Assembly: GCA_019057385.1 (NCBI GenBank)
Contig: JAHQJS010000006.1
Span: 64,001-128,000, forward strand
Direction of reading: 5' to 3'
Length of the DNA stretch: 64,000 nt
DNA from: Candidatus Borrarchaeum weybense
Lineage (GTDB): Archaea; Asgardarchaeota; Sifarchaeia; Borrarchaeales; Borrarchaeaceae
Both the position numbers and the translations under genes were made by a program. Positions within the stretch are counted from its first letter, which is position 1. Each line of letters begins with the position of its first letter. A model generated the notes under the pieces. It was given only the letters and a program-made list of their open reading frames with translations, had not been told where the DNA came from and ran no database searches. Below, piece by piece: positions 6,737 through 52,457 of the stretch.

Positions 6737-7723
6737 TCAAATATCGTGTATTATGCCTCTAATGAATCCAAGAGACCAGCCAAAAAATTCTACAACAAAG
6801 ATGAGCACTAAAAATAAAAAAAACTTACGATTTAGATTATTTTGAATAACTAAATGTGTTGAAAACGCCAAAATTACAAGGAAATAAGTCATAATCGCGC
6901 CTAAAACTACGATGAAAAGAATGTGCCAATTAAATGCCAATACTATTAGTATTATTATTGAAATCAATTCTAAAGAGGGGAGTATGTGTATCCATTCTAT
7001 TAATTTTGTATTCTTTTTGGCTAATTGAGCTCTTCCTATTGCATATCTGAATATTTGTCTGAAAAATGCTCGTGGTGTAGCTCTATGATAATGAAAAACC
7101 TTTGCAGAAGGAATATACAATATTTTGTAGCCTTGTCCCCTAAGTCTTTGATTCAATTCTGCATCTTCTGCCGTTATCAAACTCTCATTAAATAGTCCAA
7201 TTTCATTGAAGATATCTTTATAATAGGCCGCGTTGCAACCAGGAGCACTCTTAACGTATTTATTTCCTCTTAAGACCTTAGTATGGGTAGACGTACCTCC
7301 TCCCAAAGGGGTCGATAATGCAAGTCCAACCGCTTTAGAAAAATTATCTAAGTCTGGCGGGATGGTATTTGGACCCGTTGCGCAAACAATGCCTTTATTT
7401 CTATCTAATGCTAAAACCAAATCATCTAACCAATTTTTTTCAACTATGCAATCACCATCTGTAAAGGCAATTATGTCACCTTCTGCAATCTTAATTCCTT
7501 CATTACATGCCCCCGCTCGCGTTCCCTTATTCTCATAAATTATCCTTATGTCATATTTGGATGCAATGCGTATAGTATCATCTGTTGAATGTCCATCTAC
7601 GATTATTACTTCTTTTTTTGAATAATTCAAATTGAATATGGACTTTAAACAATTTTCTATTGTTCTCTCATTATTTTTTGTTGGTAAGATAATGCTCACA
7701 AGGGGATTTTTGAAAACATCCAC
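6737..7723 (-). CDS. GT2 glycosyltransferase with C-terminal TM helices
   Basis: VSIILPTKN, IVDGHSTDDT, AFTDGDC, TAEDAEL. Confidence 0.9.
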   Translation of the reverse strand: MDVFKNPLVSIILPTKNNERTIENCLKSIFNLNYSKKEVIIVDGHSTDDTIRIASKYDIRIIYENKGTRAGACNEGIKIAEGDIIAFTDGDCIVEKNWLDDLVLALDRNKGIVCATGPNTIPPDLDNFSKAVGLALSTPLGGGTSTHTKVLRGNKYVKSAPGCNAAYYKDIFNEIGLFNESLITAEDAELNQRLRGQGYKILYIPSAKVFHYHRATPRAFFRQIFRYAIGRAQLAKKNTKLIEWIHILPSLELISIIILIVLAFNWHILFIVVLGAIMTYFLVILAFSTHLVIQNNLNRKFFLFLVLIFVVEFFGWSLGFIRGIIHDI

Positions 7724-7920
7724 TTTTTTCCAATCCTAAATATTCCAATTAAAGAATCGTTAATACACATTTCCAAAATATTGTTTTCGTTCCGCTACTT
7801 ATATTTGTAGAAGAATGATCATTTTTCCATAGAATTAAATTCATATATCATCCGTCAGCCCCTTCGGCTCTATTAGGACTCGATTATAACATTACCACAT
7901 GAATTAGTTTGATATTTGTA

Positions 7921-7987
7921 CCGTTCCTTTCATTATAGACATCTCTTACAGAGTGACTATTTGAATATTAACAGTTACACACCCTAG
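7921..7987 (+). mobile_element. Short, internally deleted copy of the 19551-19927 element
   Basis: 7921-7960 matches the reverse complement of 19888-19927 at 36/40. 7965-7987 resembles the reverse complement of 19551-19575. The segment is absent from the paralogous spacer at 51380-51441. Confidence 0.65.
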
Positions 7988-7997
7988 ATGCTCATCT

Positions 7998-8741
7998 CTA
8001 TTTACAAAAAGCAATTCCAATATTTCTAAAAATCCAATAGTTCAAGTGATGTCTTTCACAAAAAATTAGAAAAGCATTCTTCAGAAAAGGTAAACTTACA
8101 ACATCATGCGATGATAGTACTCCATTTTGATTTACATGTTTAAAAGCTATATTATATTCCCAATACATGTGCTCTAATGTATGAAGACTATCATGAAAAA
8201 AGAGGTCTATGTGACTTAGCTGATTTAGCAATTTAGGGAGTAACACGGTGCTATCCCCGATAATTAATTCCCACCTATCTAAGGCTGCTTCTCGAACAAG
8301 AAAACCTTTAGGCGGCATATTTGGATCATGAGGGAGATCGATACTATATAATTTACCGGATCCGTTTTTCTTTATTGCCTCAAGGATATGAGAACTGGAT
8401 GCACCGTATAAAGTACCTGTTTCAACGACAATACTTGGCTTTAGTGCCCGGACTAATAAATATAGAGTTTCGCAATCAAAATTGAAAGTTGTGTCACTAC
8501 TGTGTCCAATCATTTTAATCAATTCAGATTTCTTAGAATCATACCAGGATTTAAATTCCGAATTAAGATATGCGGAATAAAAGGTCTTTGCGTCAACATC
8601 AAAATTTGTAGATAAAAACTCTAAGAAATTAGCACGTTCTTTGGTGTCTGGAGTTCTTTGTTCGATTAAAAGTTTATATAATTTTGTAAGCACCTGAGTT
8701 GGATACCTGATCGATTTCAATAGTAGTTTATGGTTTTTCAT
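7998..8741 (-). CDS. Class I SAM methyltransferase (Methyltransf_24-like)
   Basis: VVETGTLYGASS, LYSIDLP, DLFFHDSLHT, SHDV. Confidence 0.85.
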   Translation of the reverse strand: MKNHKLLLKSIRYPTQVLTKLYKLLIEQRTPDTKERANFLEFLSTNFDVDAKTFYSAYLNSEFKSWYDSKKSELIKMIGHSSDTTFNFDCETLYLLVRALKPSIVVETGTLYGASSSHILEAIKKNGSGKLYSIDLPHDPNMPPKGFLVREAALDRWELIIGDSTVLLPKLLNQLSHIDLFFHDSLHTLEHMYWEYNIAFKHVNQNGVLSSHDVVSLPFLKNAFLIFCERHHLNYWIFRNIGIAFCK

Positions 8742-8770
8742 TTTTTTTAACTACTTCCATATTCTAACGT

Positions 8771-8793
8771 CCCCATATTTACAAGATCTGGGG
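8771..8793. promoter_or_regulatory. Inverted repeat upstream of the methyltransferase, conserved at 52218-52240
   Basis: CCCCATAT-ttacaag-ATCTGGGG here; perfect CCCCATAT-ttacaag-ATATGGGG in the paralog. Confidence 0.5.
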
Positions 8794-8979
8794 CGCAAAA
8801 TATCTTACAGAGATCTATATCAATTTTTTTCAAAATTGTCCATTGTTTTTTAATTCACAAATCACTTTTTATTTTTCGTTTTAAGAGATTATTTCTGACA
8901 TTAAATCAACATATAATTAGTTTAAAGACTTTTGATAAGAAATCGAAACTAACCACAGAGTACCATGCTTTTTTTCTTC

Positions 8980-16652: not shown

Positions 16653-16699
16653 GCCTAGCCTCCTTTCATAAACTCAAGAATTATTTATATGATTTCTCA

Positions 16700-16943
16700 A
16701 TACAACCCCTCAACTTGTTGGAGGGGAGGGATGAAGTGCGTTACGTTGTTCACTTTCACGATACTCTGTAACCCTTAAATACTGTTTCGCATAGCTCATA
16801 TGTAGAATTGAGCTGAGGTAACACTCACCAGGCTCACATTCACATCACGTTCAGGGCAGGAATTGTCCGTTGAGCATGTGTGACATGTCCCGTTGGGAAT
16901 GAATGATTCAGGAAGCTAGCCTACTTGTAGGGTGGTAGTTAAC
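16700..16943 (+). mobile_element. Non-autonomous IS200/IS605-family element (no tnpA or tnpB)
   Basis: Left hairpin CCCCTCAAC-TT-GTTGGAGGGG followed by GGGATGAA. Right end GGAAGCTAGCCTAC-TT-GTAGGGTGGTAGTTAAC, similar to the typical GAAGCC...GGTAGTTCAC end. Both hairpins share ACTTGT. Confidence 0.75.
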
Positions 16944-16960
16944 TATGTCTATGCAATAAC
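16854..16960 (+). ncRNA. Putative TnpB omegaRNA (reRNA) scaffold plus flank-derived guide
   Basis: GGGCAGGAATTGTCC hairpin, GTTGAG able to pair with the terminal TTAAC, TGATTCAGGAAG, and the RE hairpin. The guide would be 16944-16960, TATGTCTATGCAATAAC. Confidence 0.5.
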
Positions 16961-17119: not shown

Positions 17120-18430
17120 TTAATCAATGAATTCCATTTTCCATTCACTTTTGGTATGTACTAGTCCTCTTGGAATGGCATCTCCTTCAATGATAAACGG
17201 TTTTAAATCAGATATTCTTTCATAAATCTCATTGGTAATCCCATTTCTTATGCTGAAAATCATAGAATATACTCCAGGAACTAAACTGGGTGTTAAGAAC
17301 TTCACAATTAACCTGTATTTACCTTTCAAAATATTACTAAATCTGATTTTATCGTACTCATTACTTATATGCCATATACAGTTGTTAACATTCATTGATT
17401 CAGCCCTAATTGCAACTGAAAAGTAAAGTTCCTCGAAATGCTTAGTTGTTTCAAACTCAAAGAATGTTATAAGTGGTTTTTCAACTTTAATTTTTTCAGT
17501 TAAGTTCCCAAATTCATCCAAAATTCCCGCGTCACCAAAAATGAAGTCTCCAGATGATATACGTACACCAGGAAGGACCATCTGTTTTTTGTTTTTGATA
17601 TCTGTAAGGCTTCTCTCCCTTGCCATTTCATGATATTTTGATAAAGCTTCGTGAGTCTTTCCCAGGAAAACTTGTTTGCCATTGTTGAGTATCAACACTC
17701 TGTCGCACAATTGTCTTATATGCCCTAAATTATGGCTGACGAAAACTATTGCGTAGGCATTTTCTAAAACTTGACTTACTCGACGCAAACTTTTATTTTG
17801 AAAAGCCAAATCACCAACAGATAAAACTTCATCGATTAATAATACTTCAGGTTCGCAATGCACAGCAACAGAGAAGCCTAATCTTACAAACATCCCAGAA
17901 CTATAGTTTTTCACTGGTGAATCAAGAAAATCACCGATATCTGCAAACTTAACGATATCATCAAATTTCTCCTCAATTTCTTCCTTACTCATGCCCAGTA
18001 TAGCACCGTTTATATAGATGTTTTCTCTTCCTGTTAGCATGGGATGAAACCCTGCCCCAACGGCTATCAGTGCACCAGTTTTGCCTTTTATAGTGATTTT
18101 TCCTTTATCCGGCATATAAATCCCGTTCATTATTGATAAAAGCGATGTTTTACCAGCACCGTTAGGACCGATAATTCCGAGACATTCACCTTTTTTCACC
18201 TCAAAAGATACATCATTTAGAGCCCAGAATTCATCTTTTCTAAGTATGTCAGGCTTTGCGGACATCCGCAAAATATTTCTGATAGTGTCTTTTATGCCAT
18301 AGGCCATGGACCGCCTGAGTGACCTAGAAAACTTCTTTGAAACATTTTCAGCTTTGATGACAACCTCATCATTTTCTGAGAAAATTTCATCATCATCTTT
18401 TAAGACTAAAATTCTATATCCGCTCCGCAA
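17120..18430 (-). CDS. wzt: Polysaccharide ABC exporter ATPase with C-terminal carbohydrate-binding domain
   Basis: FWALNDVSF, GPNGAGKT, YSSGMFVRLGF, LLIDEVLSVGD, plus a ~160 aa C-terminal extension. Confidence 0.92.
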   Translation of the reverse strand: MRSGYRILVLKDDDEIFSENDEVVIKAENVSKKFSRSLRRSMAYGIKDTIRNILRMSAKPDILRKDEFWALNDVSFEVKKGECLGIIGPNGAGKTSLLSIMNGIYMPDKGKITIKGKTGALIAVGAGFHPMLTGRENIYINGAILGMSKEEIEEKFDDIVKFADIGDFLDSPVKNYSSGMFVRLGFSVAVHCEPEVLLIDEVLSVGDLAFQNKSLRRVSQVLENAYAIVFVSHNLGHIRQLCDRVLILNNGKQVFLGKTHEALSKYHEMARERSLTDIKNKKQMVLPGVRISSGDFIFGDAGILDEFGNLTEKIKVEKPLITFFEFETTKHFEELYFSVAIRAESMNVNNCIWHISNEYDKIRFSNILKGKYRLIVKFLTPSLVPGVYSMIFSIRNGITNEIYERISDLKPFIIEGDAIPRGLVHTKSEWKMEFID

Positions 18431-19280
18431 TTCTTGTTTCTGCTAGATGAAAGGACATCCAACAGAAGAAAAAGACGAATACCGAAAGGCCACAGGAGAT
18501 AAAATAGCTTAAGGGATGACTTAAAGTTCCAGTCAGGGCAATCTCCCTCGGTCCTATAGAAAGATAATACAAGGGGTTGATGCGAGCCAATGTAACTACA
18601 AAGCCACTTTCGGGAAGTTCATAAGCTATGGGAGTAATGAACAATAAAAAGGTTAAGCCAAGGGTAAGTATGCGTCCCAAATCTCTTATGATGCCATTTA
18701 TAATTGAGCAGATGAAGCCTAGGCCACAGCTCAATAATAATATGGGAACAGCCATCAGTGGAAACATCACAAATTGCCAGTGAGGAATGAAATTATAAAC
18801 TCCAAACAAAATAAACACTGCTCCCAGTTGAAACAAAAACGAGATGATGGTATTCCCAAATGTAGCAAAGACTAAGGCTTCCCGTGGAAAATTAATCTTT
18901 TTAAGCATCCCACCAGCACTTACAAGCGAATTGGTACTCTGAACTAGCCCGGTGACAAATAATTGCCAGAAGGACAACCCAAGGAGTGCGTAGATCACAT
19001 AAGGTACCTCTATAGCTCCCACACTAAAAAATCCGGAGCTTCTCAACACTATAAAGGTAGCAAGCGTTACCAGCGGTATGATAAGCGCCCAGGCGACACC
19101 TAAGATTGATTGTCCATATTGTCCTTTAAAGTCCCTGACAAACAGTTGCTGGATTAACCAGTTGCTTTCTTTCGTATTGTGGAATATTTCTTTCCAGAGA
19201 ATTCTATAACCTCTTTTTATTGATTGTTCTGGCTCATATACTGTTATATTTTCTTCTTTGACCATAACAACTAACCACAT
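18414..19280 (-). CDS. wzm: Polysaccharide ABC exporter permease
   Basis: RDFKGQYGQSILGVAWA, KKINFPRE, RDLG, TPIAY, NPL; overlaps wzt. Confidence 0.92.
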   Translation of the reverse strand: MWLVVMVKEENITVYEPEQSIKRGYRILWKEIFHNTKESNWLIQQLFVRDFKGQYGQSILGVAWALIIPLVTLATFIVLRSSGFFSVGAIEVPYVIYALLGLSFWQLFVTGLVQSTNSLVSAGGMLKKINFPREALVFATFGNTIISFLFQLGAVFILFGVYNFIPHWQFVMFPLMAVPILLLSCGLGFICSIINGIIRDLGRILTLGLTFLLFITPIAYELPESGFVVTLARINPLYYLSIGPREIALTGTLSHPLSYFISCGLSVFVFFFCWMSFHLAETRIAERI

Positions 19281-19550: not shown

Positions 19551-19927
19551 CTAGGGTATATAACAGTTAACATATTTATAGGCATATATCGTTTTATAGA
19601 CACTTCTTTCAGAGCGGGAGGTTGATGAGAGCGCACCTGTTACGCGCTAACAGCAACGTTGTCCTTTTATACTGCCTCCCCTATAGTAGTGTGCCATTAA
19701 CTCACTGCCCTCACACTCCATCTTACCATCGGGATGTCTGCCGCCTTTGACCTCACTAACGCTAGCGTATCCATTAAAACTCCCACAGGATATATCCTTA
19801 CGCCGTCAACTGGATATGCTCCGCGATCTTGTGATGCAGGCCGCTCAACCGTTCTAGCGGGGACTCCACTCCACTGCTGACGAGTGGATAGCCAATCGGT
19901 AAGAGATGTCTATTATGAAAGGAACGG
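19551..19927. mobile_element. Unclassified GC-rich non-coding element with sub-terminal inverted repeats
   Basis: ATAGACACTTCTT (19596-19608) and AAGAGATGTCTAT (19901-19913) form an 11/13 inverted repeat. The interior is hairpin-rich and both ends recur at 7921-7987. Confidence 0.6.
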
Positions 19928-19952
19928 TTTCTTTGTTACGAAGTTAATTTCA

Positions 19953-21155
19953 TTATTTAAGCTTTCTAATCAGTTTAAACATTCGATAAATAAGCTTACG
20001 AAAATGCTCATAATAATAACAAAGGTAATATACATGAGAAATTGGTCCAAAGTTCCAATCATAATAATAGCCTAATCGTTTTGCTGCAGGATATAATATC
20101 CCCGATATCAATCTTTGTTCAAAAGAGTCTAATTCAGTGCGCCATCTATTGCTTAAAGCCATTAAAATTTTCCCTTGAATTTGTCTCTCCTCAAACATTG
20201 TGTTTGACTTAGCAGGCAGGCTATTGACAGTTGGATGTAATAAAATTTCATCCATTGAGATCTCTAGAAAACGGGCGATGTTCTTCATTTGAGTCACTGG
20301 ATTTGTTACTAAATCTTCATAACGTAATATATGATATTTCTCTTTTCCAAAGCGTTCTTGATTCTGGAAACCTGCTTCAATAGAGTTTTGAATCATTTTT
20401 ACATAGTTTAAGGCGTTCCAGTTCCACTTACGTAGTTTACAAAGTCGTTTTAATGATGCTATATTAGGGCGAGGATCTCGTATTATATGAATGAAGTGTG
20501 CAGCTGGAAACAAATTCTTGATTTGGTCAGTCTTCATCTCATTCCCAGGGGTTTTTTCAACCCATAACTTAGGATTGGCTGGACGCTTAGGATTAGCGCA
20601 GTAAAACGCTAAAACAACGGCAAGGAAAGAGGCACGGTCGGAAAGCGGCAAATATTCAAGCCAATAATCTAGATAATAAAGAAAGTTCAAATATGGTATA
20701 TTGTGCTCTCCCAAAATCCAGAAAGGTTTCTGTCCTGTTGGATTAATAAGACGAGAGGTCCAATATGTATCCCAACCTTCCAAACGTTTAGACAATGGCA
20801 AATTATAGTGTTTATTTATCAAGTTTATCATATGAGAATCGCCAGGCATGACAATAAGTTCGGGATGACCGTCTAAAAGCTCTAAAAGTAATGATGTTCC
20901 GCTTTTCATACAGCCACAGATGAACACGCATTTATCGGTTATCTCTTTCACAGATTCTGTAAGTTTGTTATTAATATCCAAATTTCTTTCTTTGATACTC
21001 TTGAGAGTGTTTGTATAGGCTGTGAGGATCTCGCGTGTTGCTATTGTATTTTTGAGATCACGCTTTGGAAATAATCTATCTCTCTGTTCAAATATTTGAT
21101 TTAAAGCAAGTCGGAAATCACCAAGTTTGTGATAGACACTATTATTGTCTGACAT
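19953..21155 (-). CDS. Sulfotransferase
   Basis: 5'-PSB GCMKSGTSLL, WVEKTP, 3'-PB IIRDPRPNIAS, LRYEDLV. Confidence 0.9.
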   Translation of the reverse strand: MSDNNSVYHKLGDFRLALNQIFEQRDRLFPKRDLKNTIATREILTAYTNTLKSIKERNLDINNKLTESVKEITDKCVFICGCMKSGTSLLLELLDGHPELIVMPGDSHMINLINKHYNLPLSKRLEGWDTYWTSRLINPTGQKPFWILGEHNIPYLNFLYYLDYWLEYLPLSDRASFLAVVLAFYCANPKRPANPKLWVEKTPGNEMKTDQIKNLFPAAHFIHIIRDPRPNIASLKRLCKLRKWNWNALNYVKMIQNSIEAGFQNQERFGKEKYHILRYEDLVTNPVTQMKNIARFLEISMDEILLHPTVNSLPAKSNTMFEERQIQGKILMALSNRWRTELDSFEQRLISGILYPAAKRLGYYYDWNFGPISHVYYLCYYYEHFRKLIYRMFKLIRKLK

Positions 21156-50251: not shown

Positions 50252-51253
50252 CTAAACCAATCCTCTAATAAATCCGAGAGACCAACCAAAAAACTCTGTT
50301 ATGAAAATAAGTACTAGAGATAAATACATTTTGAAACTTAACTTATTTTTAATAACTAAATGTGTTGAGAACGCCAATATAACAATGAAATAACTCATAA
50401 TTAAGCCTATACTTATTATAAAAAGAATGGGCCACTTCAGCGCTAGCAATAATAGGATGATTATGCCGATTAGTTCAAGAGATGGAAGGATATGTATCCA
50501 TCCTAACGCTTTTTTATCCTTTTTGACTAATTGCGCCCTTCCTATCGCGTATCTGTATATTTGTTTGAAAAATTTTAGTAAAGATGTCCTATGATAGTGG
50601 AAAACTTTTGCGGACGGAGCATATAATATCTTATAGCCACTTTTTTTAAGCCTCTGGTTTAAGTCTGCATCTTCTGCAGTTATCAAGCTTTCATCAAATA
50701 AACCAATCTTATCAAAAATATCTTTATAATACACTGCATTGCAACCAGGAGCACTATTTACATATTTTTTCTCTGTTAAGACTTTAGTATGGGTAGACGG
50801 TCCTCCGCCTAAAGGTGTCGATAATGCCAGGCCAACTGCCTTAGAAAAACCATCTAAGTCTGATGGGATGGCATTTGGTCCCGTTGCGCAAACAACGCCT
50901 TCATCTCTATCTAATGCTAAGACCAAGTCATCTAACCAAGTTTTTCCAACTGTGCAATCAGCATCTGTAAAGGCAATAATGCTACCTTTTGCGATCTTAA
51001 TTCCTTCATTACAAGCACCTGCTCGCGTTCCCTTGTTTTCATACATTATTTTTGCTTCATACATGGATGCAATAAGAATAGTATCATCAGTTGAATGTCC
51101 ATCTACGATTATAACTTCCTTTTTTGGATAATTCAAGCTAAATACAGATTTTAAGCATTCATTTATTGTTCTGTCATTGTTTTTTGTTGGTAGGATAATA
51201 CTTACAAGGGGATTTTTGGTAACCTTCACTTTTTTCAGGTCCTGATATTCCAA
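50252..51253 (-). CDS. GT2 glycosyltransferase with C-terminal TM helices (paralog of 6737-7723)
   Basis: IVDGHSTDDT, AFTDADC, TAEDADL. Confidence 0.9.
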   Translation of the reverse strand: MEYQDLKKVKVTKNPLVSIILPTKNNDRTINECLKSVFSLNYPKKEVIIVDGHSTDDTILIASMYEAKIMYENKGTRAGACNEGIKIAKGSIIAFTDADCTVGKTWLDDLVLALDRDEGVVCATGPNAIPSDLDGFSKAVGLALSTPLGGGPSTHTKVLTEKKYVNSAPGCNAVYYKDIFDKIGLFDESLITAEDADLNQRLKKSGYKILYAPSAKVFHYHRTSLLKFFKQIYRYAIGRAQLVKKDKKALGWIHILPSLELIGIIILLLLALKWPILFIISIGLIMSYFIVILAFSTHLVIKNKLSFKMYLSLVLIFITEFFGWSLGFIRGLV

Positions 51254-51441
51254 TTAGATAAGTTTTACAGCATATTTCAAAAATATCTTTAGTTCATCCT
51301 TTTATGTTTAGAAAAGTAAGTCATTTTCACAAAAAAGAATTCTACATATTATATTTGAAAGATCCGCTTGACTTCACTGGGACTCAATTATAACATAACC
51401 AAAAGAATCACTTCTTTACACTGTATCACGAGAATTCATCT

Positions 51442-52185
51442 CTATTTGTAAAAAGCAATTCCGATGTTTCTAAAAATCCAATAGTTCAAGTTATATCTTT
51501 CACAAAAAATTAGAAAAGCATTTTTCAGAAAAGGTAAATTCACCACATCATGAGTTGATAGTATTCCATCTTGATTTAAATATTTAAAGGCCATATGATA
51601 TTCCCAAAACATGTGATCAAACGTATGAAGACTATCGTGAAAAAAGAGATCTATGTGACTTAACTGATTTAGCAATTTAGGGAGTAACACTGCGCTATCC
51701 CCGATAATTAATTCCCACCTATCTAAGGCTGCCTCTCGAACAAGAAAACCTTTAGGCGGCATATTTGGATCATGAGGGAGATCGATACTATATAATTTAC
51801 CGGATCCGTTTTTCTTTATTGCCTCAAGGATATGAGAACTGGATGCACCGTATAAAGTACCTGTTTCAACGACAATACTTGGCTTTAGTGCCCGGACTAA
51901 TAAATATAGAGTTTCGCAATCAAAATTGAAAGTTGTGTCACTACTATGCCCTATCATTTTAATCAATTTAGATCTTTTAGAATCATACCAAGATTTGAAT
52001 TTTGAATTAAGGTATTCAGAGTAAATCGCCTTTGTGTTGACATCAAAATTAGTGGATAAAAACTCTAAGAAATTAGCCCGTTCTTTGGTATCTGGATTTT
52101 TTTGTTCGATTAAACGTTTATATAATTTTGTAAGCACCTGAGTTGGATGCCTAATTGATTTCAATAATAATTTATGTCGTTTCAT
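51442..52185 (-). CDS. Class I SAM methyltransferase (paralog of 7998-8741)
   Basis: VVETGTLYGASS, DLFFHDSLHT. Confidence 0.85.
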   Translation of the reverse strand: MKRHKLLLKSIRHPTQVLTKLYKRLIEQKNPDTKERANFLEFLSTNFDVNTKAIYSEYLNSKFKSWYDSKRSKLIKMIGHSSDTTFNFDCETLYLLVRALKPSIVVETGTLYGASSSHILEAIKKNGSGKLYSIDLPHDPNMPPKGFLVREAALDRWELIIGDSAVLLPKLLNQLSHIDLFFHDSLHTFDHMFWEYHMAFKYLNQDGILSTHDVVNLPFLKNAFLIFCERYNLNYWIFRNIGIAFYK

Positions 52186-52457
52186 TTTTTCTCACTACTT
52201 CCACATTCTAACGTCCCCCCCATATTTACAAGATATGGGGCGCAAACTGTCTAAAAGAGATTCTATATCAAATTTTTTGAAATTGTCCATTGTTTTTTTA
52301 ATTCACAAATCACTTTTTAATTTTCGTTTTGGAGGCGTTTCAATGTTAGAAACTACATATAAGAACGTTATTTTTAATAGGGTGGCGTTATGTGTGTTCT
52401 AAAATGTATATTTTTAGAGCCACTATGAATGTAAAAAGCTGTAGAGAGAGTTATGTG

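Follow-up and report, generated by a model that had tools for sequence, protein, structure and literature searches.

The window analysed here is a stretch of 64,000 nucleotides from the Asgard archaeon Candidatus Borrarchaeum weybense, in which a G+C-rich segment separates a sulfotransferase gene from the genes wzm-wzt, all of them on the minus strand. This segment (positions 19555-19927, plus strand) is very probably an internally deleted, non-autonomous transposon of the IS607 family, with a length of 373 bp when both GG cores are counted. The copy is an IS607 derivative carrying remnants of the RNA-guided nuclease gene tnpB, and its parts follow each other in the order left end, promoter region of about 140 bp, 36 tnpB codons, junction, 16 tnpB codons and right end:

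7921-7983, minus strand: 63-bp micro-derivative, with the left and right ends joined directly through a common ATAG(T/A)CA motif (sequence comparison)
18414-19280, minus strand: wzm (ABC2 membrane, PF01061), host gene, context only
19552-19556, plus strand: left junction, host TAG and then the GG crossover core at 19555-19556 (left-end comparison)
19555-19610, plus strand: IS607 left end with short repeated motifs at 19566, 19578 and 19596, consensus ATAGACA (alignments)
19611-19746, plus strand: non-coding putative promoter/leader region in place of tnpA, common to tnpB-only copies (alignments)
19747-19857, plus strand: tnpB 5′ fragment of 36 codons, with a stop just past the junction (tblastn E 1e-8; translation)
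19841-19849, plus strand: deletion junction, a single copy of the 9-bp direct repeat CCGCTCAAC (copy comparison)
19841-19891, plus strand: the final 16 tnpB codons with their stop, in another reading frame than the 5′ fragment, overlapping the predicted omegaRNA (translation, alignment)
19841-19928, plus strand: right end and truncated putative omegaRNA scaffold (alignment, pair counts)
19841-19860, plus strand: predicted omegaRNA stem 2 (alignment)
19865-19888, plus strand: predicted omegaRNA stem 3 (alignment)
19888-19912, plus strand: predicted omegaRNA stem 4, decayed (alignment)
19848-19855 with 19921-19928, plus strand: predicted omegaRNA pseudoknot (alignment)
19929-19945, plus strand: would-be guide in the host flank (position deduced from the IS607 reRNA papers)
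19953-21155, minus strand: sulfotransferase (PF13469), host gene, context only

The element lies 25 bp past the stop codon of the sulfotransferase gene and in the opposite orientation to it. The spacer between this gene and wzm measures 672 bp versus about 294-308 bp at homologous loci, an excess as expected for the insertion of an element of this size. A base-exact empty allele of the site was not found, the homologous spacers being too diverged for more than a comparison of length. The rise in G+C described in the initial annotation is real (0.48 over the element versus 0.25-0.30 in the flanks), and is largely due to the coding origin of the tnpB sequences, intact tnpB having a G+C content of 0.50.

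Ends of the element and members of its family

Both ends were defined by comparison with other copies of the family. Left ends begin at GG, mostly preceded by a purine, so that they read (G/A)GG followed by T or A, and the flanks that precede them are unrelated. In 35 out of 35 distinct right ends, GG is followed by T and then by unrelated DNA, and here the boundary corresponds to the GG core at 19926-19927 and the invariant T at 19928. IS607 elements share this GG dinucleotide, which marks each of their ends as well as the target, and a (G)GG target and a GGG or TGGG target-adjacent motif (TAM) are known for them (PMC6188088; 10.1101/2023.08.09.552727; 10.1101/2023.11.20.567912). By analogy, TAGGG at the left junction would be the predicted TAM of the TnpB nuclease. 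The ATAGACA-type motifs of the left end are probable TnpA binding sites, as judged from the binding of TnpA to end motifs in the description of IS607 (PMC6188088), and the last two of them are spaced by 18 bp in the window copy and by 20 bp in most relatives. As observed separately, the left ends of the copies L001, L004, L012 and L035 are either short or longer by one 20-bp unit with an extra motif; such a unit, of approximately two helical turns, would fit a phased binding of TnpA.

The left end also contains two features reported previously, which are present as described: a TTTATA at 19575, with further copies at 19593 and 19666, and the left arm of an 11/13 inverted repeat (19596-19608 / 19901-19913). 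A pair as good as this one is found in 2% of the shuffles of the terminal zones, and the repeat is an ATAGACA-type motif standing opposite its counterpart in the right end. The element shows no terminal inverted repeat, but an imperfect sub-terminal one and short repeated motifs, as in IS607. With regard to the mode of insertion, removal of a sister copy (L002) together with one GG restores the frame of a cupin gene, which then matches an uninterrupted, 95%-identical ortholog in genome G004, indicating insertion of this sister copy without target duplication. The L002 copy (G000:C4:1265050-1266940) is a tnpB-only element that cuts the cupin gene short near its 3′ end, whereas the G004 ortholog is intact.

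The recurrence of the ends within the window, previously placed at 7921-7987, was found at 7921-7983 in the form of the 63-bp micro-derivative, which is missing from the paralogous locus near 51410-51436 (199 bases in the paralog for 261). A block with glycosyltransferase and methyltransferase genes is duplicated in the window (6737-8900 and approximately 50600-52330, with 79-91% identity), and, out of the two duplicated glycosyltransferase blocks, the first alone carries the micro-element.

A BLASTN search of the region against its own genome yields dispersed partial copies. The family has 11 right ends in this genome, two of them on intact tnpB genes:

L001:569-2209, minus strand: long TnpB gene, intact catalytic motifs
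L002:606-2243, minus strand: long TnpB gene, intact catalytic motifs

These two copies of about 1.89 kb encode proteins of 545 and 546 aa, which pass the cut-off of the NF040570 (guided_TnpB) model and keep the RuvC D, E and D motifs and a zinc finger. The parent TnpB belongs to a divergent clade, as indicated by its score of 56 with the IS607_TnpB model (cut-off 350). Its closest relatives come from records named Sifarchaeum, Borrarchaeota and Promethearchaeota, and the named homologues at 55-60% identity belong to other Asgard groups. The long TnpB has 126 homologues at E<=1e-20, those named being mostly Asgard; about 290 residues precede RuvC-I, and solved structures match the protein in the RuvC region only. 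A 76%-identical tnpB on a 1.67-kb contig (L027) of a Desulfobacterales MAG, from a sample series shared with Sifarchaeum, is probably mis-binned.

In autonomous copies, tnpB lies downstream of tnpA, as in IS607. The copy L014, found in another genome of this genus, has the left and right ends of the family around a 187-aa tnpA that overlaps the start of tnpB and reaches 199 bits with the IS607 transposase model NF033518 (cut-off 110). L087, from another Asgard lineage, shows a 187-aa resolvase (PF00239) with the same layout and ends, and L090 contains a decayed tnpA. In L014 and L087, tnpA is preceded by the same kind of left end as in the window copy. Searches by protein and by family did not find any IS607 tnpA in the window's own genome, whose sole resolvase match (C6:664611) was rejected as such because it belongs to another kind of serine recombinase and lies in a phage-like region without family ends. 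A 258-aa serine recombinase at L010:1123-1899 (minus strand), located among small phage-like ORFs, probably belongs to an integrated element and is not an IS607 TnpA. Viral contigs gave no exact match to the right end. Membership in IS200/IS605 (PATE) was also rejected, since the autonomous copies carry a serine recombinase and the one Y1 gene (C7:194221) neighbours an unrelated tnpB, with no end of this family nearby.

Altogether, a single genus contains a size series of tnpA-tnpB elements (2.28 kb), tnpB-only elements (1.85-1.89 kb), a partial deletion (586 bp), microhomology minis (373-430 bp) and the ends-only stub of 63 bp. Family members look mosaic, with left- and right-end subtypes that mix. 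Two sister minis, at L005:~600-700 and in L055, have a left end that another TnpB-type element interrupts or replaces by nested insertion into the promoter region. An unrelated multi-copy element of about 265 bp, with more than 10 near-full copies, maps to window positions 16680-16945; the ~95 nt at its 3′ side match what directly follows other, shorter tnpB genes, so that this is probably a mini-element without genes that belongs to a second TnpB family.

The tnpB stubs, the guide-RNA scaffold and the origin of the deletion

The non-coding region at 19611-19746 shows no similarity to tnpA and 70-77% identity to the sequence upstream of intact tnpB. It contains a conserved TATA-like CTTTTATA at 19664-19671 and would act as a promoter. 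The complementary motifs listed in the initial annotation occur at or within one base of their reported sites (CTGTTA 19637/TAACAG 19648, CCGCT 19841/AGCGG 19856, TCCACT 19865/AGTGGA 19883), and the first of these hairpins, in the promoter region, is loosely kept among copies. The same annotation had seen no credible ORF, but the beginning (19747-19857) and the end (19841-19891) of tnpB are both present (59% identity over 51 aligned residues by tblastn, E 1e-8), with the ATG start codon decayed to TTG. A decayed protein-coding fragment, which the annotation had set against its own proposal, is therefore what these two stubs are, although they make up only part of the element. Two palindromes, present as described at 19759 and 19788, sit in the tnpB fragment and can be judged incidental, since they are not kept in other copies.

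Intact tnpB genes contain the repeat CCGCTCAA(C) twice, about 1.46-1.49 kb apart, and approximately 1.47 kb is missing at the junction of the window copy. Among long-range repeats of at least 8 bp this is the most widely common one, being found in 8 of 13 members (8-9 bp).

In intact elements the last ~120-130 nt are more conserved than the codons upstream, and a family fold with four stems and a pseudoknot leaves 94% of the cells paired in 26 sequences, compared to 34-45% in slid controls. Two-sided pair changes amount to 11 versus 4.3 in shuffles (0/500), in a covariation test over 26 related sequences whose relatedness inflates such values. The pseudoknot is pairable in 100% of the 26 sequences, with nearly invariant columns and one-sided changes only. 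The reRNAs or omegaRNAs of IS607 elements are known to have stem-loops, a pseudoknot before the guide, a CGG end and a fixed next base (10.1101/2023.08.09.552727; 10.1101/2023.11.20.567912). Since the fold, the CGG end, the fixed base and the GGG-type TAM match those of IS607 reRNAs, the right end of the family can be read, from its sequence, as a predicted TnpB omegaRNA scaffold with a sharp boundary to a variable guide. The window copy keeps 88 nt of this conserved scaffold, having lost stem 1 by deletion.

The complementarity between an internal and a terminal sequence that had attracted attention before is also there, with AACCGTTC at 19847 (19848 in the previous description) and GAACGGTT at 19922, and would form the pseudoknot on the plus strand. 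The plus strand, and not the minus strand formerly proposed, is accordingly taken here as the working one, between true ends at 19555 and 19927. As to the hairpin density attributed to the whole element, its folding is no better than that of shuffled sequences (z -1.0 for the plus and -0.55 for the minus strand); the conserved structure is limited to the last ~90 nt, where the description holds. Rfam gave no meaningful match for the element or for five sister loci, and a second target with a GG-T core for the would-be guide was found nowhere else in the genome.

The CCGCTCAAC repeat join is present in three minis of the same genome, whereas in a mini of G004 (L055) the join is shifted onward by a few bases within that imperfect repeat. 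A tree of the 5′ parts was built with three minis, one partial deletion and 17 tnpB-bearing copies, leaving out L055, the distant L015 and L019, the tnpA-bearing L014 and duplicates. The window mini, which is 78% identical to L021 and 63-67% to its two sister minis, groups with other intact copies than these sisters do. Monophyly of the minis is rejected (p-AU 0.002), which rules out a single origin, in a tree argument that mosaicism among copies weakens. Together with the shifted join of L055, this indicates that the same deletion arose at least three times independently. A literature search found no paper on IS607 internal deletion by microhomology.

The proposed pathway would start with a tnpB-only copy, descended from a tnpA-tnpB element, which either resided already at a GG-T site between the sulfotransferase gene and wzm or was copied into that site. 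The 1.47 kb would then be lost by recombination between two copies of the 9-bp repeat, the first at tnpB codons 32-34 and the second where omegaRNA stem 2 begins, through either replication slippage or interrupted copy-repair after a TnpB cut. Any mobilization would need an IS607 serine recombinase in trans, which would bind the end motifs and carry out strand exchange at GG, whereas the retained TATA could drive a plus-strand RNA of about 235 nt plus the guide.

Relic or working guide

The window copy is most likely an immobile, ageing and inactive relic, because the assembly contains no IS607 tnpA and the copy shows such low identity to its sister minis. The 2-bp change in motif spacing, the decayed start codon, the truncated scaffold and the absence of nearly identical sister copies also make a lack of current function the most likely situation, and guiding of TnpB by the window RNA is unlikely since stem 1 is missing and stem 4 decayed. 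A doubtful alternative would be an element of the same origin that is still functional, as a promoter-driven stand-alone guide or decoy that the products of the two intact TnpB genes would use in trans. Such an RNA would guard its own site by cutting the empty allele, and the junction would have been favoured because stem 2 onward constitutes a minimal scaffold. The conservation of the TATA box, stems 2-3, the pseudoknot and an exact right end, the same junction in four copies, the two intact-looking TnpB genes of the genome and the existence of stand-alone omegaRNAs (PMC10691335, PMC10055086) are all consistent with this reading. However, the missing stem 1 shows covariation and occurs in every intact copy as well as in a separate stand-alone class, and stem 4 is degenerate in the window copy. 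Moreover, the junction is already explained by the most common repeat, and the minis are diverged singletons with no recent expansion. A related idea, just as improbable, is that the repeated deletion at one 9-bp repeat represents a built-in route from nuclease genes to short promoter-driven RNAs that bind TnpB in trans; if true, this route would define a natural minimal scaffold of ~90 nt for an unusually long TnpB clade.

A second class of gene-less copies belongs to the same IS607 family:

L007:534-920 (C3:90934), minus strand: own genome
L006:2170-2582 (C5:218380), plus strand: own genome
L034:4336-4735, L063, L066, L057 and L058: further copies

These copies contain a left end, their own TATA box (TTTATAAAG), a segment of ~130 nt and a complete putative omegaRNA including stem 1. 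The ~130-nt segment is conserved, does not match tnpB or tnpA and would constitute an extra domain on the 5′ side of the RNA, its first and last bases pairing with each other around two hairpins. Four genomes of the genus contain this class, which a search of 246 further genomes from the phylum did not find and which has no counterpart in Rfam. It would be the best candidate for a working stand-alone guide, better than the window copy.

Considerably less probable is a host-domesticated non-coding RNA or regulatory element acting on wzm or on the sulfotransferase, for instance by antisense read-through into the sulfotransferase 3′ end. The kept putative plus-strand promoter does face the end of this minus-strand gene from 25 bp away, but the element is absent from the paralog and from the G004 homolog, without any Rfam match or conservation at the locus.

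IS110/IS1111 elements have sub-terminal inverted repeats, no target duplication, a structured non-coding RNA and a DEDD recombinase. The first three traits are shared with the present element, and the initial annotation had proposed, among other readings, a non-autonomous element with a bridge-like guide RNA, with which its imperfect sub-terminal repeat and the internal sequence complementary to its end are consistent. A mobile element with a partial guide-type RNA is what remains of this proposal, the IS110 family and mechanism being extremely unlikely. No match to PF01548 (DEDD) or PF02371 (Transposase_20) exists in the 100% complete assembly, and all long copies, in which the annotation had suggested looking for a DEDD (IS110) or DDE transposase, encode TnpB with or without a serine recombinase, that of IS607 in the autonomous ones. 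The sub-terminal imperfect repeat is already known from IS607 (PMC6188088). The internal match would be the pseudoknot of a plus-strand omegaRNA and not a bridge or seek RNA, since the loop stays unchanged among copies at unrelated insertion sites and has its only match in the 3′ end of the element itself. Hardly any weight can be given to an invertible promoter switch for the glycan locus, suggested by the position upstream of wzm-wzt and the 11/13 repeat, since homologous loci lack the element, the interior keeps one orientation relative to the ends in every family copy examined, and the contigs from two sequencing runs cross it without a difference in sequence or orientation, no excision or inversion joints appearing among the contigs listed, which drop rare variants.

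Relation to known systems

The window copy is an added member of the known IS607 family (IS607, IS1535, ISC1926; PMC6188088), with which it shares a parent encoding a serine-recombinase TnpA and TnpB, the GG core, the (G)GG target without target duplication, unrelated termini, an imperfect sub-terminal inverted repeat and short repeated end motifs. It differs in having tnpB stubs only and no tnpA, and its parent TnpB is long (about 525-545 aa) and mainly Asgard among named matches. Its right end resembles the omegaRNAs of ISXfa1 (10.1101/2023.08.09.552727) and CboIStron (10.1101/2023.11.20.567912) in the scaffold that overlaps the tnpB 3′ end, the stem-loops, the pseudoknot to the last bases, the CGG end with a fixed flanking base, the guide from the flank and the GGG-type motif at the left junction. 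On the other hand, the ISXfa1 scaffold has 144 nt versus the 88 nt left here, and the window copy, whose omegaRNA is a predicted one, has no group I intron. Protein-less minis bearing omegaRNAs and solo tnpB elements were already known (PMC10055086, PMC10691335). As with the PATE-like IS200/IS605 elements and stand-alone omegaRNAs described there, this protein-less mini retains its two ends together with sequence of the guide RNA and relies on proteins supplied in trans, but it has IS607 serine-recombinase ends instead of Y1 hairpin ends, and a truncated scaffold. Contrary to IS110/IS1111, no DEDD recombinase is involved and the RNA would be a nuclease guide scaffold, not a recombination guide.

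The element is most likely an ordinary relic and reveals neither a new recombination-guide RNA nor a phase-variation switch. Its weight is modest, as a clean worked example of IS607-TnpB decay with all stages in one genus. The set of copies would nevertheless provide the ends, the predicted TAM and the putative guide scaffold of an uncharacterised Asgard clade of ~540-aa TnpBs, together with a natural truncation series for asking which part of the omegaRNA is needed.
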